The translations under genes were made by a program, and so were the position numbers. Source: Escherichia phage vB_EcoM_ACG-C40. Taken from it: a stretch of 64,000 nucleotides of DNA. The DNA is taken from sequence record NC_019399.1; one strand, written 5' to 3'. Each line of letters opens with the position of its first letter. Position 1 is the first letter of the stretch. Below are positions 6,222 to 61,987 of the stretch, piece by piece. Below the pieces are notes generated by a model. It made no database searches and had not been told where the DNA came from. It was given only the letters and a program-made list of their open reading frames with translations.

Positions 6222-7730
6222 ATGGATATTAAAGTACATTTTCACGACTTCAGTCATGTACGCATCGATTGTGAAGAGAGCACGTTCCACGAATTAAGAG
6301 ATTTCTTTTCGTTTGAGGCCGATGGATATAGATTTAACCCTCGCTTCAGATATGGCAACTGGGATGGACGAATTCGTCTTTTAGATTATAATCGCCTTCT
6401 TCCATTCGGTTTAGTCGGGCAAATTAAAAAGTTCTGCGATAACTTTGGCTATAAAGCCTGGATTGACCCACAGATTAACGAAAAAGAAGAATTATCAAGA
6501 AAAGATTTTGATGAATGGCTTTCTAAATTAGAAATCTATTCAGGAAATAAAAGAATTGAACCGCATTGGTATCAAAAAGATGCAGTGTTCGAAGGATTAG
6601 TTAATCGTCGTAGAATTCTTAATCTTCCAACATCCGCAGGTAAATCTTTAATTCAAGCTTTGCTTGCTCGGTATTATTTGGAAAATTATGAAGGCAAAAT
6701 TCTTATTATTGTTCCAACAACTGCTCTGACAACTCAGATGGCTGATGACTTTGTTGACTATCGTTTATTCAGTCATGCAATGATAAAGAAAATCGGTGGT
6801 GGAGCATCAAAAGATGATAAATATAAAAATGATGCACCGGTCGTTGTTGGTACATGGCAAACTGTAGTAAAACAACCGAAAGAATGGTTCTCACAGTTTG
6901 GAATGATGATGAATGATGAATGTCATCTTGCTACAGGAAAAAGTATTTCATCTATCATATCAGGTTTAAATAACTGCATGTTCAAATTCGGTTTGTCTGG
7001 TTCATTACGTGATGGCAAAGCCAATATCATGCAGTATGTTGGAATGTTCGGTGAAATATTTAAGCCAGTAACGACCTCTAAATTAATGGAAGATGGACAA
7101 GTAACTGAGTTAAAAATTAATAGTATTTTTCTTCGCTATCCCGATGAGTTCACTACTAAATTAAAGGGAAAAACTTATCAAGAAGAAATAAAAATTATTA
7201 CTGGGCTTAGTAAAAGAAATAAATGGATCGCTAAATTAGCTATTAAGCTTGCGCAAAAAGATGAAAACGCTTTTGTCATGTTTAAACATGTATCGCACGG
7301 TAAAGCTATTTTCGATTTAATTAAAAATGAATACGATAAAGTTTATTACGTATCAGGGGAAGTTGATACCGAAACCCGCAATATAATGAAAACCTTAGCT
7401 GAAAATGGTAAAGGAATAATTATAGTAGCGAGTTATGGTGTATTTTCTACTGGTATTTCAGTTAAAAATCTGCATCATGTTGTTTTAGCGCACGGTGTTA
7501 AATCTAAAATTATTGTATTGCAAACAATAGGTCGCGTATTACGTAAGCATGGTTCTAAGACAATAGCAACAGTCTGGGACCTCATAGATGACGCGGGCGT
7601 GGTTTCTAAATCAAAAACATCTTCTAAAAAATACTCGCATTTAAACTATCTTTTAAAACATGGACTTGATCGTATTCAGCGTTATGCTGATGAAAAGTTT
7701 AATTATGTGATGAAAGAGGTTAAACTTTGA
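6222..7730 (+). CDS. uvsW: UvsW DNA/RNA helicase
   Basis: 502-aa ORF with SF2 helicase motifs (GKS, DECH), start MDIKVHFHDFSHV. Confidence 0.9.
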   Translation: MDIKVHFHDFSHVRIDCEESTFHELRDFFSFEADGYRFNPRFRYGNWDGRIRLLDYNRLLPFGLVGQIKKFCDNFGYKAWIDPQINEKEELSRKDFDEWLSKLEIYSGNKRIEPHWYQKDAVFEGLVNRRRILNLPTSAGKSLIQALLARYYLENYEGKILIIVPTTALTTQMADDFVDYRLFSHAMIKKIGGGASKDDKYKNDAPVVVGTWQTVVKQPKEWFSQFGMMMNDECHLATGKSISSIISGLNNCMFKFGLSGSLRDGKANIMQYVGMFGEIFKPVTTSKLMEDGQVTELKINSIFLRYPDEFTTKLKGKTYQEEIKIITGLSKRNKWIAKLAIKLAQKDENAFVMFKHVSHGKAIFDLIKNEYDKVYYVSGEVDTETRNIMKTLAENGKGIIIVASYGVFSTGISVKNLHHVVLAHGVKSKIIVLQTIGRVLRKHGSKTIATVWDLIDDAGVVSKSKTSSKKYSHLNYLLKHGLDRIQRYADEKFNYVMKEVKL

Positions 7731-8419
7731 ATTATAAATTAATATATGATAATTTAATTAATAGAGCCCAGAATCGGGCTCGCCTTAATGGATACACTGA
7801 AACTCATCATATAATTCCTAGATGTATGGGTGGTACAGATGATAGGTGTAATTTAGTAGAACTAACAGCTGAAGAACATTTTATAGCCCATAAACTTTTA
7901 GCTAAAATTCATCCAAATCATTACGGTATAATTAAAGCCGTTATATGTATGGGAATGAACTCAAAGACTCATGAAAGACACGTTAATAAATCTTACGCAT
8001 GGGAACGTCGTAAAATGGCAGAACTTCAATCCGGTGAAGGTAATCCATTTTACGGAAAACACCATACGGAAGAACATAAACAATATATGTCAAAACTCAT
8101 GAAAAGTCGTCCAATTACATGGGGAAATAAAATTAGTAAAACTAAAAGAATGAACCCAACAAAATGGACCGAAGAAGCTAAAAGATTACATTCAATCAAT
8201 CAATCGGGTAAAAATAATGGCATGTATGGAAGGAAACATTCCGCTAAATCTATTCAGAAAATTAAAGATAACATGCCAGATAATTCAGGAGCTAATAACC
8301 CAGCTGCTAAACCTATAGAAGTAAATGGTGTTAAATATAAATGTATGAAAGACGCTTCTAAAGCTACTGGATTATCAATGTACAAACTAAGAATACTCAG
8401 AAAAACAGTTAATTTATAA
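7727..8419 (+). CDS. HNH homing-endonuclease-like protein (Mob-like) with NUMOD-like repeats and C-terminal HTH
   Basis: HHIIPRCMGGTDDRCNLVELTAEEHFIAH motif; repeated G(K/R)(H/K)HS/T modules; ATGA overlap with uvsW stop. Confidence 0.8.
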   Translation: MNYKLIYDNLINRAQNRARLNGYTETHHIIPRCMGGTDDRCNLVELTAEEHFIAHKLLAKIHPNHYGIIKAVICMGMNSKTHERHVNKSYAWERRKMAELQSGEGNPFYGKHHTEEHKQYMSKLMKSRPITWGNKISKTKRMNPTKWTEEAKRLHSINQSGKNNGMYGRKHSAKSIQKIKDNMPDNSGANNPAAKPIEVNGVKYKCMKDASKATGLSMYKLRILRKTVNL

Positions 8420-8436
8420 GGGCTTCGGCCCTTTGG
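8418..8436 (+). terminator. hairpin after HNH gene
   Basis: aagggcttcggcccttt stem; the T-run is short (ttt) before ggag. Confidence 0.4.
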
Positions 8437-8444
8437 AGAAAAAG

Positions 8445-8675
8445 ATGTTACTAGAATTTAAACAATTTCTTTATGAAGCTTCTATTGATGAATTTATGGG
8501 TAAAATTGCCTCTTGTCAAACATTAGAAGGTTTAGAAGAACTTGAAGCTTATTATAAGAAAAGAGTTAAAGAAACTGAATTAAAAGATACTGATGACATC
8601 TCAGTCAGAGATGCTTTGGCAGGAAAAAGAGCTGAATTAGAAGATTCAGACGATGAAGTAGAAGAAAGCTTTTAA
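8445..8675 (+). CDS. uvsW.1: UvsW.1 small acidic protein
   Basis: 76-aa product MLLEFKQFLYEASIDEF..., recognised as T4 UvsW.1; ORF track begins 4 codons earlier. Confidence 0.7.
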   Translation: MLLEFKQFLYEASIDEFMGKIASCQTLEGLEELEAYYKKRVKETELKDTDDISVRDALAGKRAELEDSDDEVEESF

Positions 8676-24767: not shown

Positions 24768-25164
24768 TATAAATTCTCTTTTAAATGAAAATGCAGGACT
24801 TATTGGCATTGCCTGCGAAAGCCCTCAAGGGGGTACTTAGGTTTTGAGTATTTACCGACAGGATAACCATAAACCCGTCATCATACCTTATAGCTCTTAT
24901 CTGTTGCACACCGTTAGCTTAAAGGTTCCGGGTTCGATTTCTCGAGGATAAGATATATACTGATGGATATATAGGCCTTGAGGCGTACTCCCGATTGGCC
25001 ATCACCTCGGGGTAGCATGCACTTGCCGCTATAAGAATAACATTCAAGAGGTACACCGTAAAACTGCCGGGGTCTTAAAACTATAATGATTCGCAAATCA
25101 TTAATCAGACAGTTCGACGGCTCCTCGATTTTAGCTCACACTAAGGCAGTGAATCTCCAATAAA
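24768..25164. other. GC-rich, ORF-free structured island (candidate structured RNA or regulatory region)
   Basis: about 350 bp without a credible ORF on either strand in a tightly packed genome; long-range complementary pair CCTCAAGG (24823..24830) / CCTTGAGG (24976..24983) and several local GC stems. Confidence 0.4.
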
Positions 25165-28188: not shown

Positions 28189-29599
<1,411 letters not shown>

Positions 29600-29603
<4 letters not shown>

Positions 29604-32650: not shown

Positions 32651-33829
32651 TTAAAAGTATTTTTTAAAACTCATCATAACTTTATCATCAACATCATTAT
32701 CAATCTGTGCAACAAGATAAGATGACAGTTCTACTTCTTGTGGCGCTGATTGAACATTATCAGAATTAAGATATTCACGAATCCAAGGATATGGATGTTT
32801 AACCGGAGCATCGGTAATTGGGCATGGAAGACCACACTGTTTCATACGAGATACAGTTAAGTAATCAATAAAGCTCCACATGCTATTTGTATTTAATCCA
32901 GGAACATCGCCATCTTTAAATAAATGAACTGCCCAATCTTTTTCTTGGCGGTTAACTTCCATGAAAATATCAACTGCTTCTTGTTCACACTCTTGAGCAA
33001 TTTTAACCCATTGATCGCCATCAGTACCAGATTGAAGTTGACGAATAATATATTGGGTGCCTTTAAGGTGAAGCTGTTCATCGCGTGCAATGAACTTCAT
33101 AATCTTGGCATTACCTTCCATGATTTCCATGTTCTTATGGAAGTTAAAGGTACATGCAAAAGATACATAAAAACGAATAGCTTCCAATGCGTTGATTACA
33201 TGCAAACAGAGGTAAAGAGATTTCATTAGCTCACGCTTCCAATATGTCTCATGCTCAATAGCATCTTCAATAACGTCTTCGTCTGCGTTAATTTCTTTTT
33301 GGTATTCGATATCAGCTTTAGCGTTTTCCCAATAACGAGTTTTAATCAGAACATCATCATAATAACGTCCAATGGATTCAGCACGTTTCATAATAGCTTC
33401 ATCTAATACAATTTCATCAAATACCTTCGATGGATCAGTATAAAGATTTCGCATGATATGAGTATATGAACGACTGTGAATAGTTTCACTAAAAGTCCAT
33501 GTAGCAGCCCATGTATCAAGACTTGGGTCTGAAATTAATGACATAAGTACAGCAGACGGCGCACGACCCTGAATGCTATCTAAAAGTGATTGATACTTCA
33601 GGTTGTTAGTAAAAATATTTTGCTGGTACTGAGGAAGCTTATTAAACTGTGCAGCATCCATCATCAAGTTTACTTCTTCAGGACGCCAGAAAAATGATAA
33701 TTGCTTTTCGGTTAAATCTTCAAAAACTTTATGACGTTGAATATCATAACGCGCAATACCAAGACCTGAACCAAAAAACATAGGTTCTTTTAAAACATCA
33801 ACTGGATTTGTATTAAAAACTGTGCTCAT
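32651..33829 (-). CDS. nrdB: ribonucleotide reductase small subunit NrdB (uninterrupted, no intron)
   Basis: 392-aa continuous ORF with R2 features and conserved C-terminal tail. Confidence 0.9.
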   Translation of the reverse strand: MSTVFNTNPVDVLKEPMFFGSGLGIARYDIQRHKVFEDLTEKQLSFFWRPEEVNLMMDAAQFNKLPQYQQNIFTNNLKYQSLLDSIQGRAPSAVLMSLISDPSLDTWAATWTFSETIHSRSYTHIMRNLYTDPSKVFDEIVLDEAIMKRAESIGRYYDDVLIKTRYWENAKADIEYQKEINADEDVIEDAIEHETYWKRELMKSLYLCLHVINALEAIRFYVSFACTFNFHKNMEIMEGNAKIMKFIARDEQLHLKGTQYIIRQLQSGTDGDQWVKIAQECEQEAVDIFMEVNRQEKDWAVHLFKDGDVPGLNTNSMWSFIDYLTVSRMKQCGLPCPITDAPVKHPYPWIREYLNSDNVQSAPQEVELSSYLVAQIDNDVDDKVMMSFKKYF

Positions 33830-33880
33830 AAATTTTCCGCTTAGTTAATAGTTGGTGACTCGTCCGTGAGTCAAATTATA

Positions 33881-36145
33881 TCATAATTTACAGGATGAAC
33901 AATCTTCAGCTTTTGGAGTTTCTATTTCATAATCATCAGTACCAGAACCATCGCGGGTATTATGATAATAGAAATTTTTTCCGCCAAAATACCAAAAATA
34001 CAAAAGGTCATCAATCATTATTGACATTGGAACCTTTCCTTTTGGAAAAATCTGCGGGTCATAATATGTATTCGCTGAAGCTGATTGACATACCCATTTC
34101 AGCATAATAGCTACCTGCGTAAGATAAGGTTTATTACCTTTCTTAGCTAATTTCCATGTATAATCATATAGGTCTATGTTATGCTCAATATTGGGCACGA
34201 CTTGATTAAAGGAGCCCTCTTTTGATTCTTTAACAGAGACTGGTCCACGTGGAGGCTCGATACCGTTTGTACTGTTAGAAACTTGGGAAGATGACTCACA
34301 TGGCATAAGTGCTGATAATGTGCTATTACGGATGCCAAAGAGCTTAAGGTCTTCCCGCAGCGCCGACCAGTCACAAACGTATTTTGGAGCTGCGATTTGG
34401 TCAATCTTTTTATTGTACCAGTCGATAGGTAATTCGCCTCGAGACCAACGAGTGTCTGAATAATATTCGCAAGGTCCTTTTTCTTTGGCGAGCTTAATGG
34501 ATGCTTTAATGAGTCCATACTGTAATCTCTCAAATAGTTCATGTGTTAAATCATTAGCATCTTCATAAGAAGCAAAGTTACTTGCCAGCCAAGCTGCATA
34601 GTTGGTAACACCTACACCGAGGTTACGACGCTTTTTAGCTTTTTCTGCTTCAGGAACTGGATATCCTTGGTAATCCAACAGATTATCAAGAGCACGAACT
34701 TGAACTTCTGCCAATTCATTAATTTTATCTTGGTCTTGCCAGTCAAAATTATCTAGTACGAATGCAGAGAGAGTACACAATCCAATTTCAGCATCAGGAC
34801 TATTCACATCATTTGTTGGAATAGCAATTTCACAGCACAAGTTACTCTGACGAATAGGCGCCTTTTCACGAATAAACGGAGTATAGTTATTCGTATTATC
34901 AATGAACTGCACATAAATCCTTGCGGTTCCTGAACGTTCAGTCATGAGCAATTCAAATAGTTCACGGGCTTTAATACGCTTTTTACGAATATTAGGGTCT
35001 TTTTCTGCTGCTTCGTATAATTCACGGAAACGGTTTTGGTCTTTAAAATAAGAATAATAAAGTTCGCCACCCATTTCATGCGGACTGAACAAAGTAATGT
35101 AATCATTCTTTCCGAATCGTTCCATCATTAGGTCATTCAGTTGAACGCCATAATCCATATGACGGATACGGTTTTCTTCTACGCCTTTGTTATTTTTCAA
35201 AACGAGAAGATTTTCAACTTCCAAATGCCAAATAGGATAATAAGCAGTAGCAGCGCCGCCACGAATTCCACCCTGTGAGCATGATTTAACTGCAGTCTGA
35301 AAATGTTTCCAAAAAGGAATAACACCAGTATGGCGTACTTCACCCATGCCAATCTTAGAACCTTCAGCACGAATCATACCAACGTTAATACCAATTCCAG
35401 CGCGTTTAGAGATATATTCAACAATTGAAGCGGAAGCCTTGTTGATAGACTTTAATGAATCACCTGCCTCAATAACAACACATGAACTAAACTGTCGAGT
35501 CGGAGTACGACAACCAGCCATAATAGGAGTTGGTAATGAAATCTGTCGAGTAGATACTGCTTCATAAAAACGGATAACGTGTTTTAATCTATCAACAGGT
35601 TCATCTTGATGCAATGCCATTCCAATAGTCATAAATGCAAACTGTGGAGTTTCATAAATTTGACCAGTGGTTTTATCTTTAACTAGATATTTTTCTTTTA
35701 ATTGCATCGCCCCGGAATAAGTAAATTCCATATCCCGTTCGTGCTTAATTTTTGATTCTAAAAATGTAATTTCTTCTGCTGAATATTTTGACAACAGTTC
35801 AGGGTCGTATTTACCTTCATTTACACAGTAAGAAATATGGTCAATAAATGAACGCGGTTCATACTGCCCATAAACATGCTTACGAAGAGCGAACATTAGA
35901 CAACGTGCAGCTACATATTGATAATCAGGCTCTTCAACCGAAATAGAATTCGCAGCGGCCTTAATGACAATAGTCTGAATATCATCAGTTGTCATTCCAT
36001 CACGGAGATAAGATTTAATATTTTCATATAATTCATAAGGATCTACTGATGTTCCCTCAGCTGCCCAAGATAAAACTTTAATAATTTTTTGTGGGTCAAA
36101 GCTCTGAGAAACACCACTACTTTTGATAACATTAATTAATTGCAT
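33881..36145 (-). CDS. nrdA: ribonucleotide reductase large subunit NrdA
   Basis: 754-aa ORF with ATP-cone N-terminus and class I RNR catalytic core. Confidence 0.9.
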   Translation of the reverse strand: MQLINVIKSSGVSQSFDPQKIIKVLSWAAEGTSVDPYELYENIKSYLRDGMTTDDIQTIVIKAAANSISVEEPDYQYVAARCLMFALRKHVYGQYEPRSFIDHISYCVNEGKYDPELLSKYSAEEITFLESKIKHERDMEFTYSGAMQLKEKYLVKDKTTGQIYETPQFAFMTIGMALHQDEPVDRLKHVIRFYEAVSTRQISLPTPIMAGCRTPTRQFSSCVVIEAGDSLKSINKASASIVEYISKRAGIGINVGMIRAEGSKIGMGEVRHTGVIPFWKHFQTAVKSCSQGGIRGGAATAYYPIWHLEVENLLVLKNNKGVEENRIRHMDYGVQLNDLMMERFGKNDYITLFSPHEMGGELYYSYFKDQNRFRELYEAAEKDPNIRKKRIKARELFELLMTERSGTARIYVQFIDNTNNYTPFIREKAPIRQSNLCCEIAIPTNDVNSPDAEIGLCTLSAFVLDNFDWQDQDKINELAEVQVRALDNLLDYQGYPVPEAEKAKKRRNLGVGVTNYAAWLASNFASYEDANDLTHELFERLQYGLIKASIKLAKEKGPCEYYSDTRWSRGELPIDWYNKKIDQIAAPKYVCDWSALREDLKLFGIRNSTLSALMPCESSSQVSNSTNGIEPPRGPVSVKESKEGSFNQVVPNIEHNIDLYDYTWKLAKKGNKPYLTQVAIMLKWVCQSASANTYYDPQIFPKGKVPMSIMIDDLLYFWYFGGKNFYYHNTRDGSGTDDYEIETPKAEDCSSCKL

Positions 36146-38579: not shown

Positions 38580-39608
<1,029 letters not shown>

Positions 39609-44628: not shown

Positions 44629-44636
44629 TATAAATA
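44629..44636 (+). promoter_or_regulatory. late promoter TATAAATA for gene 34 (T4 oriG is placed near here)
   Basis: exact TATAAATA 35 nt upstream of gene 34 ATG. Confidence 0.65.
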
Positions 44637-48548: not shown

Positions 48549-49664
48549 ATGGAAAAATTTATGGCAGAGTTTGGACAAGGATATGTCCAAACGCCATTTT
48601 TATCGGAAAGTAATTCAGTAAGATACAAAATAAGTATAGCGGGTTCTTGCCCGCTTTCTACTGCAGGACCATACGTTAAATTTCAGGATAATCCTGTAGG
48701 AAGTCAAACATTTAGCGCAGGCCTTCATTTAAGAGTTTTTGACCCTTCTACGGGAGCATTAGTTGATAGTAAGTCATATGCTTTTTCTGCTTCAAACAAT
48801 ACAACATCTGCCGCTTTTGTCAGTTTCATGAATTCTTTGTCAAACAATAGACTTGTTGCTATATTAACTAGCGGAAAGGTTAATTTTCCTCCTGAAGTGG
48901 TATCTTGGTTAAGGGGAGCAGGAACTTCAGTTTTTCCATCAGATTCAGTATTGTCAAGATTTGACGTGTCATATGCTGCTTTTTATACTTCTTCTAAAAG
49001 AGCTATTGCATTAGAGCATGTTAAACTAAGTAATAGAAAAAGCACAGATGATTATCAAACTATTTTAGATGTTGTATTTGATAGTTTAGAAGACGTCGGA
49101 GCTACAGGATTTCCTAAAAGAACATACGAAAGCGTTGAGCAATTTATGTCTGCGGTTGGAGGAACTAATAATGAAATTGCGCGATTGCCAACTTCAGCTG
49201 CTATAAGTAAACTTTCTGACTATAATTTAATTCCTGGTGATGTTCTTTATCTTAAAGCACAACTATATGCTGATGCTGATTTACTTGATCTTGGAACTAC
49301 AAATATATCTATTCGTTTTTATGATGCATCAAATGGATATATTTCCTCGACCCAAGCTGAGTTTACTGGGCAAGCTGGGTCTTGGGAATTAAAAGAAGAT
49401 TATGTAGTTGTTCCTGAAAATGCAGTAGGATTTACGATATATGCACAAAGAACTGCTCAAGCAGGTCAAGGCGGCATGAGAAATTTAAGTTTTTCTGAAG
49501 TATCAAGAAATGGCGGCATTTCAAAACCTGCCGAATTTGGCGTCAACGGTATTCGCGTTAATTATGTCTGTGAATCGGCTTCACCTCCAGATATAATGGT
49601 ACTTCCTACACAAGCCTCTTCTAAAACTGGCAAAGTGTTTGGACAGGAATTTAGAGAAGTTTAA
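48549..49664 (+). CDS. 35: long tail fibre hinge protein gp35
   Basis: 371-aa ORF. Confidence 0.85.
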   Translation: MEKFMAEFGQGYVQTPFLSESNSVRYKISIAGSCPLSTAGPYVKFQDNPVGSQTFSAGLHLRVFDPSTGALVDSKSYAFSASNNTTSAAFVSFMNSLSNNRLVAILTSGKVNFPPEVVSWLRGAGTSVFPSDSVLSRFDVSYAAFYTSSKRAIALEHVKLSNRKSTDDYQTILDVVFDSLEDVGATGFPKRTYESVEQFMSAVGGTNNEIARLPTSAAISKLSDYNLIPGDVLYLKAQLYADADLLDLGTTNISIRFYDASNGYISSTQAEFTGQAGSWELKEDYVVVPENAVGFTIYAQRTAQAGQGGMRNLSFSEVSRNGGISKPAEFGVNGIRVNYVCESASPPDIMVLPTQASSKTGKVFGQEFREV

Positions 49665-49695: not shown

Positions 49696-49703
49696 TATAA
49701 ATA
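49696..49703 (+). promoter_or_regulatory. late promoter TATAAATA for gene 36
   Basis: exact TATAAATA upstream of ATG 49727. Confidence 0.65.
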
Positions 49704-50385: not shown

Positions 50386-53300
50386 ATGGCTACTTTAAAA
50401 CAAATACAATTTAAAAGAAGCAAAACTGCAGGTCAACGTCCTGCTGCTTCAGTATTAGCCGAAGGTGAATTGGCTATAAACTTAAAAGATAAAACAATTT
50501 TCACAAAAGATGACTCAGGTAGTGTTATAGAATTAGGTTTAAAATATGGAGGAACTATAAATGGGTCTTTAGAGGTTACAGAAAATATAACTGGAACTTT
50601 AATTGGAAATTCTAGCACAGCTACTAAATTGCAAACACCTAGGAAAATTAATGGTATATCTTTTGATGGGTCAAAGGACATTACCTTAACTCCATCTGAC
50701 ATAAATGTCAATAGCACAACATTTATAAAAAATAATGGCGAATTACCTACTGATGCTAATTTAGATACGTATGGGCCCATTGAAGAATATCTTGGTGTTT
50801 GGTCGAAATCTACTTCAACAAATGCGCAACCAGCAAATAAATTCCCAGAAGAAAATGCCGTAGGTGTACTAGAAGTATTTGTGGCCGGCCAATTTGCTGG
50901 CACTCAGCGTTATACTGTAAGATCTGGTAACGTCTATATTCGTTCCTTATCTGCTAAATGGAATGGCGTCGATGGTCCATGGGGTGTGTGGCGTAATGTT
51001 CAAGCGTCAACTCGTCCACTTTCACAAACGATTGACCTTGATAGCTTGGGAGAATTAGAACATTGTGGCTTATGGAGAAACAGTTCAAGCGCAATCGCAT
51101 CATTTGATCGCCATTATCCAGAAGAAGGATCAGCCGCACAAGGATTTTTAGAAATATTTGAAGGTGGTTTATACACAAGAACGCAGCGTTATACTACCCG
51201 CATGGGTATGGTTTATACTCGTTGTCTCGCTGCTGCATGGGATGCTAGTGCACCTAAGTGGGAGGAATGGAAGCAGGTTGGTCATGGCACACCAGCGACT
51301 TTCTATGATGGAGATCTGAATGATTTTAAAACTCCTGGGTTATATAACATTTTAGGCACTGATGCCGTTATTAACTGTCCTACTGGTGAAGGTTTACCAG
51401 CCGTTATTGTTGGTTTGCTGGAAGTTAAACAGCGTGCTTCTGGTGGTGCTATTTTCCAAAAATTTACTACTGCCGGAACGGGTGCAACTACTCGCGATCG
51501 TATTTTTGAGCGTGCATATACTGGTGGTGCGTGGGGTGCATGGAACGAAGTATATACATCTTATTCTCTTCCAATTACTTTGGGTATGGGTGGTATTAAA
51601 GCTCAATTAGCGGAGTTAGATTGGCAAACCTTTGATTTTGTTCCTGGTAGTATGTTTAGCGTTCCTTTGAACAAAATAAAGAACATGCCAGCAAATATGG
51701 ATTGGGGGACGATTGACGGAAACCTGGTTATGTTTTCCGTTGGTCCTAGTGAACACACTAGCACAGGGCGTACTGTTCAGGTTTGGCGCGGTACTGTATC
51801 CCAGACAAACTACCGTTATTTTGTCGTTCGTGTGTTCGGTAATTCTGGAAATAGAACTTGCACAGTCCGCCGTGTTGTTCTTGAAGATGGTCGCCACACA
51901 TGGACAGATCAACAAGATTTTAATGGTGCTGTTAACTTCGGTGCTCCTACCAATTTTAACTCTACTGTTAACCTTAATAACACTACCACATTTAAAACAG
52001 AAGTTAAATTCCGCTCATCTAATGCATTCCGTATGTATAGCGGAAAATTTGGTACAATTTTCCGTAATGATGGAGAGAGTCTTTATATTCTTTCCACCGA
52101 CGAAAATGATCAAGATGGAAACTTTAATACAAATAGACCTTTCCGTTATGAATTAAGAACTGGTGATGTTACTTTGGGTGGTACTAGTGGTGCTAACGTT
52201 TTAAAATTAAAACGCGATTCTCTCACCGCATTTTTTGGTGGTGATATTAATATAAAAGGCTTGATGACTTTTGATGCCGGACGTTTAGGATCACGAGATT
52301 ATTTTAAATTTAACCATTGGGGTGATAGTAATAATGCGCGCGATAACATTATTCAGTTAGAAGACAGCAAAGGCGTTCATTTTTCCACTGAACGTACTTT
52401 AGCGACTGGTGCAATTAAAACTCGTTTCTTTGGCGAAACATTCACTGATGGTACATTATACCTAAATCAGATGAATAATAGCTCTGAACGATTCCATATC
52501 AATAATTGGGGAAATTCAGAAGTTGGTCGCGCGGCAGTGATGGAAATCGGTGATTCCAAAGGTTATCACTTCTATACTGAACGCAGGACAGATAACAGTT
52601 TGGCGTTTGATGTTGCTGGCGCTTTTACTGTGCATGGACCTAACGGAATAACCATCAAAAACTCAGCGGGTGCACGCCATATCTGGTTTAAAGATGATAG
52701 CGATACAGAAAAGGCTGTTATTTGGGCGACCGATGATGGCATGTTACATATACGAAATAATAACGAGGGTTCATTTAGTCATCACTTCCAGGGCGCAATG
52801 ATTAGACTGGAAGGGCGTGTTCCTTATGGTGCAGCAAAGGGGCTTCTCCGTGGTGAAGTTGATGGTGGTGCATATGTTGCATGGAGAGACCGCCCTGCTG
52901 GTTTGTTGGTTGACTGCCAGAAAAGTATTGACAGTGCTCATGCTGTTTGGAAAGCGGTTGATTGGGGGCGTCAATATATCGCTGCGATGGACGTTCATTG
53001 TCCGGGTGATGGTAATAATACCGCAGCCGCTGTTCTTCATGTTCAGGCTGCTGATTATCAATTCCACGCAAGCGGAGAATTTCATGCCACTGGTAACGGA
53101 AACTTTAACGATGTGTATATTCGTTCTGATCGTCGTCTTAAAGACAATATAGAAGATTATACCGGAAATGCGTTAAGTTTGATTGGTAAGCTGAAAGTGA
53201 AAACTTACGATAAAGTTAAATCTCTTAAGGACCGTGAAATTATCGGTCATGAGATTGGCATTATCGCACAGGATTTACAAGAAATATTACCGGAAGCTGT

Positions 53301-53478
53301 GAAATCTTCAAAAGTTGGCAATCTTGATAATCCAGACGATGTTCTGACAATTTCTAACTCGGCAGTGAATGCTCTTTTAATTAAGGCTATTCAGGAAATG
53401 AGTGAAGAAATTAAAGAATTGAAAACTCCTTTCTTTACTAAAATTGCTCGCAAAATTAGTAAATATTTTAAATTCTAA
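50386..53478 (+). CDS. 37: long tail fibre distal subunit gp37 with C-terminal chaperone-like domain
   Basis: 1030-aa ORF; C-terminus ...[12 protein letters not shown]...IAQDLQEIL... resembles intramolecular chaperone/autoprocessing domains. Confidence 0.85.
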
Positions 53479-53482
53479 CAAC

Positions 53483-53502
53483 AAGGGGGAAATGCCCCCT
53501 TT
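53483..53502 (+). terminator. hairpin after gene 37
   Basis: aaggggg-aaat-gcccccttt. Confidence 0.5.
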
Positions 53503-53514
53503 GGAGTATAAATT

Positions 53515-54315
53515 ATGGCAGTAGTTGGTGTTCCTGGTTGGATTGGAAGTTCAGCCGCAAATGAAACAGGACAGCGCTGGATGAGTCAAGCGGCTGGTCA
53601 ATTAAGATTGGGTGTTCCTTGCTGGATGAGTCAATTTGCAGGTCGCTCACGAGAAATTATTCACACGCTTGGAGCAGACCATAACTTCAATGGTCAATGG
53701 TTCCGAGATAGATGTTTTGAGGCAGGTAGTGCACCTATAGTATTTAATATTACAGGTGATTTAGTATCATATTCTAAAGATGTACCGCTTTTCTTTATGT
53801 ATGGTGACACTCCTAACGAATACGTTGTCCTTAATATTCATGGTGGTGTCCATATGTGGGGTCGAGGTGGTAATGGTGGATACACTCACTCAGGTGGAGA
53901 TGGTAACGGTACACAAGGCGGTCATGTTATTCAAAATGATATCGGTGGACGGCTTCGTATTTGGAACTACGGTGTTATAGCTGCTGGCGGTGGTGGCGGT
54001 GGTGGTATTGCATATCGTCCACACTCAGGGGCAAACTGGCAAGATATCGGTGGCGGTGGCGGTCGACCTTTCGGTGGTGCAGGTGGTGGTGGTTATTCCG
54101 GTGGCGCTGCTTCTTATGAAGGTCCGGGTGGTGGTTATGACTATGGTAACGCACACTCCGGCGCAGGTGGTAATGCTGGTGCTGCTGGTCAGAATGCATG
54201 GTCTGACGGCGGTAAAGTTCTTAAAGTTGGTGTTGGTGGTGCGTCTGGTCATGCAGTGTTTGGGTCTTCTCCAACTTGGGGTGCTGTTGGAACAATTTAC
54301 GGACCAAGAGTATAA
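53515..54315 (+). CDS. 38: tail fibre adhesin gp38, T2/T6-type with glycine-rich motifs
   Basis: 266-aa ORF with multiple poly-Gly islands ([21 protein letters not shown]) separated by variable segments. Confidence 0.8.
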
Positions 54316-54345
54316 TTTGAATAAATATCCTTAAAAGGAGGGTCT

Positions 54346-57993: not shown

Positions 57994-58221
57994 TTACTTA
58001 ATGTTCAGATTACGAACTTCGATTTCGTCTTCATGGGCAAAATCAAACTGTTTGAATTCTGTGTCACCTTTAAATTTAAAAATCATTGTGAAGAAAGTCA
58101 GAACACCAGGTTTTTCTTCACGAACTCCACAGATATCATATTCAATACCATCTACAACCAGTTTGTTAGCAGTCAGAGCATTTTTAGCTTTAACGATTTC
58201 GTTTTCGATTTTAAATTTCAT
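57994..58221 (-). CDS. hypothetical protein (75 aa)
   Basis: ORF track. Confidence 0.5.
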   Translation of the reverse strand: MKFKIENEIVKAKNALTANKLVVDGIEYDICGVREEKPGVLTFFTMIFKFKGDTEFKQFDFAHEDEIEVRNLNIK

Positions 58222-61624: not shown

Positions 61625-61987
61625 TCATAGTTCAATCTCAACGATTTTCATTTCATTACTATTAATAGCCTCTTTAAGACTATCTGAAAGAATTACATTC
61701 CAGTGGTCATTCATATGACCATTAACTAAGCGTGTAATTTCTTCAGGAGTTGAAAAATAAGGCTGATCGGACTCCCAATGCGATAATCCTAAGCGAGTAT
61801 AAATCATGCCTTCATCATCGCTAGAATATTCAACTGACACAAACTCATCAGTTATTTTATGCTTAGCATAATAAAATTTAAATTTCATTTTACTCTCCAA
61901 ATCCGTATCAGTTGATAGTTGTATAGTACCACGGTCCTTGTGGTATGTAAACCATTTTGTGAAATTTTTTAAATGGAAAGATACCAT
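61625..61987 (-). CDS. hypothetical protein (track ORF 120 aa; likely true start at internal Met, about 87 aa)
   Basis: ORF track; 5' portion of track ORF overlaps a promoter element. Confidence 0.5.
   Translation of the reverse strand: MVSFHLKNFTKWFTYHKDRGTIQLSTDTDLESKMKFKFYYAKHKITDEFVSVEYSSDDEGMIYTRLGLSHWESDQPYFSTPEEITRLVNGHMNDHWNVILSDSLKEAINSNEMKIVEIEL
61922..61955 (-). promoter_or_regulatory. T4 early-type promoter
   Basis: - strand TTTACA-18nt-TACTAT, same repeat family. Confidence 0.45.

Follow-up and report, generated by a model that had tools for sequence, protein, structure and literature searches.

Gene 38 lies between gene 37 and the holin gene t in the stretch of T-even phage DNA that we analyzed (64,000 nucleotides, hereafter called the window). 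It starts with ATG, encodes 266 aa, and is separated by 36 nt from the stop codon of gene 37 and by 30 nt from the start of t. The boundaries, length, and position after gene 37 given by the first-pass annotation were all confirmed, and both of the glycine-rich peptides that it quoted are present in the translation. The order 37-38-t-asiA is the same in T2, T6, Sf21, and RB32, and the order 37-38-t is likewise found in U115. Glycine accounts for 69 of the 266 residues (26%), 55 of them within the final 151, and the GC content peaks at 0.54 over positions 53900 to 54199, versus 0.30 to 0.35 in the flanks. A GGAG ribosome-binding site is placed 8 nt upstream of the ATG and is preceded by a hairpin whose predicted folding energy of -16.3 kcal/mol is not significant by itself (z = -1.78). 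Over the whole intergenic region between genes 37 and 38, U115, M1, and BCPShso show 100% identity to the window. Scanning the 64-kb window against Rfam yielded nothing at the gathering thresholds.

Table 1. Features in and around gene 38 (positions are those of the window)
Feature	Position	Strand	Basis
Late-promoter consensus TATAAATA, T4 type, upstream of gene 36	49696..49703	+	Exact motif search
Gene 37, T2-type distal long-tail-fiber subunit, 1030 aa	50386..53478	+	PHROG, Pfam, motif
C-terminal 117 aa of gp37 (aa 914-1030), predicted to be cleaved off	53125-53475	+	S74 domain, DVYIR/SDRRLK
37-38 intergenic GGGGG-AAATG-CCCCC hairpin, followed by GGAG	53484..53512	+	Sequence
Gene 38, very probable T2/Ox2-type receptor-binding adhesin, predicted at the long-tail-fiber tip	53515..54315, stop codon included	+	ORF and Pfam/PHROG/PDB matches
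gp38 aa 1-115, N-terminal attachment domain (aa 1 to about 42) and first part of the predicted beta-helix	53515..53859	+	Gp38_N, alignment
gp38 aa 116-245, receptor-specificity domain, Gly-rich motifs alternating with hypervariable loops	53860..54249	+	Alignments
Recombinant tract relative to U115, about codon 85 to the stop codon, Sf21-like	53760..54315	+	Mismatches per 50 nt, segment identities
Holin gene t, 218 aa	54346..55002	+	Phage_holin_T, 1.9e-117

An exact motif search located the late-promoter consensus upstream of gene 36. The same exact sequence occurs upstream of gene 34 (position 44629), and no further exact copy was found between the site preceding gene 36 and gene 38. Its assignment as a late promoter rests on established knowledge of T4 late transcription. 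Because no exact TATAAATA stands directly before gene 37 or gene 38, gene 38 is most likely cotranscribed with genes 36 and 37, on a late transcript that likely starts at the consensus upstream of gene 36. Another candidate, TATAAATT, located just upstream of the gene 38 ATG, was rejected as a late promoter, as it falls between the start codon and its ribosome-binding site.

We then analyzed the sequence of gp38. The protein is covered by two Pfam families, Gp38_N (PF21721; aa 1 to 42, 1.5e-19, 70.1 bits) and GP38 (PF05268; aa 47 to 266, 1.1e-67, 228.5 bits), each with a cutoff of 25 bits, and over its entire length by phrog_2056, "tail fiber protein; host specificity" (6.5e-110). It also matches two crystallized proteins, namely, the receptor-binding domain of PP01 gp38 (9v85, 2.7e-65; PMC12892980) and the gp38 chain of the gp37-gp38 complex of phage S16 (6f45_D, 1.4e-42, residues 5 to 263). 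Gene 38 of this Tequatrovirus thus very probably encodes a monomeric receptor-binding adhesin of the T2/Ox2 type, in line with the T2/T6-type adhesin that the first-pass annotation had proposed in preference to a chaperone of the T4 type, and its product probably sits at the tail-fiber tip. AlphaFold2, run on the sequence by itself, gave a model too poor to use (pLDDT 32.7, pTM 0.20); from its homology to the two crystal structures, gp38 is predicted to adopt the fold of 6F45_D and 9V85, a beta-helix combined with a polyglycine-II (PGII) sandwich.

To compare the domains of gp38, eleven gp38 proteins were aligned and the alignment was then split. The first 115 residues share 93 to 100% aa identity with their counterparts in Ox2, M1, T6, U115, Sf21, and RB32; in the structures of S16 and PP01, the N-terminal part docks gp38 onto the gp37 trimer's tip (PMC12892980, PMC12032242). 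In the specificity domain, Gly-rich motifs (among them GRGGNGG, AAGGGGGGG, GPGGG, and VGGASG) alternate with hypervariable loops such as YSGGAASYE and YDYGNAH, an arrangement that the first-pass annotation had recognized and for which Trojet 2011 counted five Gly-rich motifs (GRMs) and four hypervariable segments (HVSs) in T2-type gp38 (PMC3157838). The Gly blocks, including G158-G163 and G179-G183-R-P-F-G, form invariant columns in the alignment with gp38 of Ox2, M1, T6, and T2, and in the alignments that cover Ox2, M1, T6, T2, RB32, AV119, and U115 they are parted by variable segments. At the DNA level, gene 38 differs from its counterparts in Sf21, ESh28, and Ox2 by 16 to 34 synonymous and 1 to 6 nonsynonymous changes, with a dN/dS of 0.02 versus Sf21 and ESh28 and 0.05 versus Ox2. 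Since the Gly columns are invariant and purifying selection is strong, the Gly runs are not low-complexity sequence that arose by chance. The view that the variable loops set receptor specificity is backed by published genetics and structures (PMC3157838, PMC12032242, PMC12892980).

Gene 38 of T4 shares with the gene described here its name and its slot between genes 37 and t. The T4 protein is a tail-fiber assembly chaperone that is absent from the virion, and the T4 receptor is bound by the tip of gp37 itself. The occupation of this same slot, together with the label "distal long tail fiber assembly catalyst" on some of the homologous records, could suggest that the 266-aa protein is a T4-type chaperone, or another nonstructural assembly factor, with low-complexity Gly runs. 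We consider this extremely improbable, and the reading is effectively refuted. The T4 protein (NP_049864) has an unrelated sequence of 183 aa, a length in agreement with the roughly 183 aa of the first-pass annotation, and BLASTP detected no similarity between the two (best E = 3.6). No chaperone family was matched in Pfam or PHROGs, whereas the adhesin families and the crystallized receptor-binding domains of gp38 are matched over the full length. Moreover, T2, T6, M1, and Ox2 all share the Gly motifs without change, gp37 possesses an intramolecular chaperone domain of its own, and the "assembly catalyst" labels were inherited from the annotation of T4. A best homology to T4 gp38 with fortuitous Gly runs, the outcome that would have spoken against an adhesin, was therefore not what we found. 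The chance that gene 38 is a decaying or nonfunctional remnant, with adsorption relying on gp37 or on the short fibers, is just as minute: the ORF is intact and equal in length to those of Ox2, Sf21, ESh28, and RB32, it is served by a properly spaced GGAG, its dN/dS is only 0.02 to 0.05, and its gp37 partner does not have a T4-type receptor-binding tip. We found no support for such decay, and the intact ORF and the purifying selection effectively refute it.

The window is collinear with positions 106,001 to 168,903 of T4, with matches spanning 57.3 of the 64 kb at a mean nt identity of 95%. The largest block without a T4 match, 50541-54320, consists of gene 37 from codon 52 onward and the whole of gene 38. 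The first-pass annotation had described the host-range module of this otherwise T4-like genome as mosaic. This stands in that the module differs from that of T4 and forms the largest unmatched block, but the arrangement is not unusual, and the differing unit is the coupled gp37 and gp38 rather than gene 38 alone. In a tblastn search, adhesin-type gp38 was found in 805 phage records, versus 297 for T4-type gp38, about 90 of which match at less than 60% identity. The T2/T6 form of gp38 has been described as the predominant one (Trojet et al. 2011, PMC3157838). The T2-type arrangement is therefore the majority form, and T4 is the exception.

Other differences from T4 are scattered over the window. 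A 230-aa HNH/NUMOD3 homing endonuclease (7727-8419, + strand; phrog_655, 2e-60; Pfam NUMOD3, 7.5e-14) is encoded between uvsW (6222..7730), whose stop codon it overlaps, and a uvsW.1-like ORF (8433..8675). It shows 72% nt identity to T4 mobE over 7728-7914 and represents a mobile-element insertion, because this site is empty in T4. Conversely, segD, the nrdB group I intron with I-TevIII, and nrdB.1 with mobE are present in T4 and absent here (sites 748-809, 33153-33156, and 33829-33885). The td region aligns with that of T4 without a break, the intron/I-TevI span included, although Rfam reported no group I intron at the gathering threshold. Two small ORFs on the - strand were also observed. 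One, of 106 aa (29283-29603; phrog_2364, 2.1e-58), is located between pseT and a pseT.1-like ORF, within a 313-bp stretch without a T4 nt match, and has no Pfam match. The other, of 75 aa (57994-58221; phrog_10955, 1e-48), lies between motA and motA.1 in a 322-bp block unmatched in T4, but Sf21 and ESh28 each have a hypothetical ORF at this place. Four more short blocks of about 155 to 225 bp have no T4 nt counterpart (24884-25040, 38581-38781, 39380-39585, and 61658-61882).

The partner of gp38, gp37, was identified by its matches to the PHROG "long tail fiber protein distal subunit" (1e-236) and to Pfam Gp34_trimer, and it ends in a Peptidase_S74 intramolecular chaperone domain (Pfam, aa 914 to 973, 2.9e-15). 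We predict that gp37 is cut at DVYIR/SDRRLK (R913/S914), which would leave a mature part of aa 1 to 913. The motif DVYIR/SD.RLK is conserved in gp37 of T6, Sf21, ESh28, RB32, Ox2, M1, and U115 and absent from that of T4; proteolytic processing of T2 gp37 has been published (Drexler 1986, as cited in PMC3157838). The protein shares 99.7% aa identity with gp37 of U115. It is a patchwork in which codons 1 to 52 are T4-like, codons 1 to about 513, 684, and 764 are common to ESh28, Sf21, and T6, respectively, and codons ∼700 to 901 are common only to U115, BCPShso_001, and RB32. From codon ∼902 (position 53090), just before the S74 cleavage motif, the gene is again homologous to that of all T2-type phages. 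Elsewhere in the fiber region, gp35 (gene 35, 48549-49664) showed a match to Pfam ILEI (Interleukin-like EMT inducer/FAM3 type; aa 58 to 112, 7.9e-08, 33.1 bits versus a cutoff of 27), an unexpected label for a tail-fiber hinge-connector protein.

The gp38 described here is a common, previously sequenced adhesin allele, near-identical in Ox2 and in dozens of T-even phages. The alignment with Ox2 gp38 proposed by the first-pass annotation (X05675, CAA29158; Montag et al. 1987; also 266 aa) revealed 261/266 identical residues and 95.0% nt identity, with the same GRM/HVS layout and 37-38-t context. The five differences are A14S, A15V, N174K, G193R, and A257V (window residue first). In contrast, gp37 of Ox2 is only 58% identical over the last ∼170 aa and has no nt match before codon 902. 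Gene 38 of Sf21 is 97.9% identical in DNA, and the gp38 proteins of the Shigella phages Sf21 and ESh28 each differ from the one described here by a single residue (A257V). Over aa 116 to 266, identity reaches 100% in DalCa, Nami, ESh29, EcNP1, MLP2, EC.W13-3, and EC.W14-2; this region is at least 99% identical in 27 records, 95 to 99% identical in 13, and 80 to 90% identical in 94. A search of the phage collection did not turn up the exact combination of residues over the 266 aa, the best match being 99.6%.

In the specificity domain (aa 116 to 245), the identities separate 98 to 100% with Ox2, Sf21, and ESh28 from 83 to 85% with RB32, AV119, and BCPShso_001 and 42 to 49% with T2, T6, M1, and U115. 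RB32 gp38 and AV119 gp38, both "type 1" in Lutz et al. 2025, share the loop class, with 85% identity in the specificity domain and the loop-2 motif R-x-H-S-G-A, but they represent a sister subtype with ∼15% loop divergence and dissimilar C-terminal 20 aa (FGSSPTWGA versus IGSAPTWQN). The proteins of S16 (6F45) and PP01 (9V85) are homologous over the full length, with the attachment domain, beta-helix, and PGII sandwich that we expect here; however, both are OmpC binders, and their hypervariable loops are unrelated to those of the window gp38. In Sf21, ESh28, DalCa, Nami, EcNP1, and MLP2, the distal half of gp37 is of another type, and nt homology with these gp37 genes, as with that of T6, breaks at 51922-52437 and resumes at 53090. 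A near-identical adhesin is thus carried on a different fiber shaft, since the distal halves of gp37 differ in type. In all, this gp38 adhesin occurs on at least two fiber-shaft types.

Comparison with U115, the closest relative of the backbone, revealed that gene 38 is a chimera. The fiber genes are 98 to 100% U115-like up to about codon 85 of gene 38, with only 5 mismatches in 53090-53740, and from 53760-53790 (codons ∼83 to 92) the two sequences diverge up to the stop codon. The reverse is seen with Sf21, which is unalignable or ∼75% identical across the gp37 tip and the chaperone domain, to about 53340, and shows only 4 nt differences in 53790-54315. The 5' third of gene 38 is therefore U115-like, and the 3' two-thirds form an OmpA-type cassette like that of Sf21 and DalCa. 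The left crossover falls near codons 60 to 90, within the conserved part of the gene that encodes the N terminus. The end of a blastn HSP would have placed it exactly in GRM1, a position that we rejected, as binning of the mismatches puts the crossover upstream, in the conserved codons 25 to 85. The right crossover is at or beyond the stop codon of gene 38 and is not placeable there because t and asiA are near-identical in all the phages compared.

The specificity domain of U115 is 96% identical to that of T6, i.e., of the Tsx type. The chimera may record a recent natural receptor switch, in which a U115-like phage with a Tsx-type cassette had the 3' two-thirds of its gene 38 replaced by the OmpA-type version of an Sf21/DalCa-like phage by crossovers at ∼53590-53760 and at or beyond the stop codon; to our mind, the case for this history is evenly balanced. 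Cassette swapping has reportedly been produced in the laboratory (Tetart, 1998). In the laboratory recombinants of RB5 and RB32, of which this chimera is a natural counterpart, the whole HVS cassette of ∼400 bp was exchanged through crossovers in its conserved flanks (PMC3157838).

As also suggested by the first-pass annotation, we used loop similarity to predict the receptor, and it assigned gp38 to the Ox2/RB32/AV119 class, for which OmpA is predicted. Loop 2 carries the motif R168-P-H-S-G-A173, and the corresponding stretch of the "type 1" adhesins of AV119 and FL08, R165-V-H-S-G-A, has been named as the main part of the protein in contact with OmpA (Lutz et al., PMC12032242). The two loop residues that differ from Ox2 recur within the class: AV119 has N174, and G193 is shared by RB32, AV119, and BCPShso. 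Ox2 is presented as a classical OmpA phage in PMC12032242, the dependence of AV119 on OmpA was established with an ompA knockout (PMC12032242), and use of OmpA with sensitivity to LPS composition was shown for RB32 with Keio mutants and by transfer of its cassette into RB5 (PMC3157838). Since all members of the loop class with known receptors use OmpA, the primary receptor is most likely OmpA of E. coli/Shigella. For Sf21, we found no published receptor data.

Small changes in the loops can nevertheless shift receptors. Mutations in the hypervariable regions of Ox2 gp38 changed its receptor specificity (Drexler 1989, 1991, as cited in PMC12892980), only a few loop residues set PST and SV76 apart from T6 and T2 and yet they use different or additional receptors (PMC3157838), and Ox2 and RB32 themselves are listed among the phages with more complex receptor requirements (Trojet et al., PMC3157838). 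The sequence class is therefore a good, though not a certain, guide to the receptor. The same mutations of Ox2 and the precedent of PST and SV76, together with the differences N174K (loop 2) and G193R between the window and Ox2, would be compatible with a primary receptor other than OmpA, whether OmpC, Tsx, OmpF, FadL, or LPS alone. We regard this as unlikely. The form with N174 and G193 is a common natural allele, 100% identical over aa 116 to 266 in at least seven phages and at least 99% identical in 27 records, and these residues occur in AV119 and RB32, which depend on OmpA experimentally. The loops are only 42 to 49% identical to those of the Tsx type (T6, U115) and of the FadL/OmpF type (T2), and the phylogeny of gp38 was found to predict the receptor (Lutz et al. 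2025). OmpA thus remains the preferred assignment.

We propose the following sequence of events for this adhesin. Gene 38 would be expressed late, on one transcript with genes 36 and 37. The gp37 trimer would fold with the aid of its own C-terminal S74 domain and then be cleaved near R913/S914, with release of the 117 aa, and a single gp38 would dock on the exposed gp37 tip through its conserved aa 1 to ∼42. The Gly-rich motifs of gp38 would form polyglycine-II helices packed as a rigid sandwich, which would present the hypervariable loops at the extreme end of each long tail fiber; the structures of S16 and PP01 show such a PGII sandwich displaying loops (PMC12892980). Reversible adsorption to E. 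coli/Shigella would then take place via the extracellular loops of OmpA.

The family of this gp38, its architecture and loop class, its likely receptor, the type of its gp37, and the mode of recombination all belong to T-even biology that was already known, from work published between 1985 and 2025. The crossover within gene 38 cleanly illustrates, in a natural phage, the cassette swapping obtained in the laboratory (Tetart 1998, Trojet 2011) and brings no new principle. If the receptor switch is true, it would have set an OmpA adhesin on a fiber shaft that is otherwise found carrying a Tsx adhesin. The value of the gp38 finding is practical only and lies in receptor prediction: the Ox2-type OmpA class predicts the primary receptor and the likely routes to host resistance (loss of ompA or variation of its loops), and it indicates which phages would be redundant or complementary in a cocktail.
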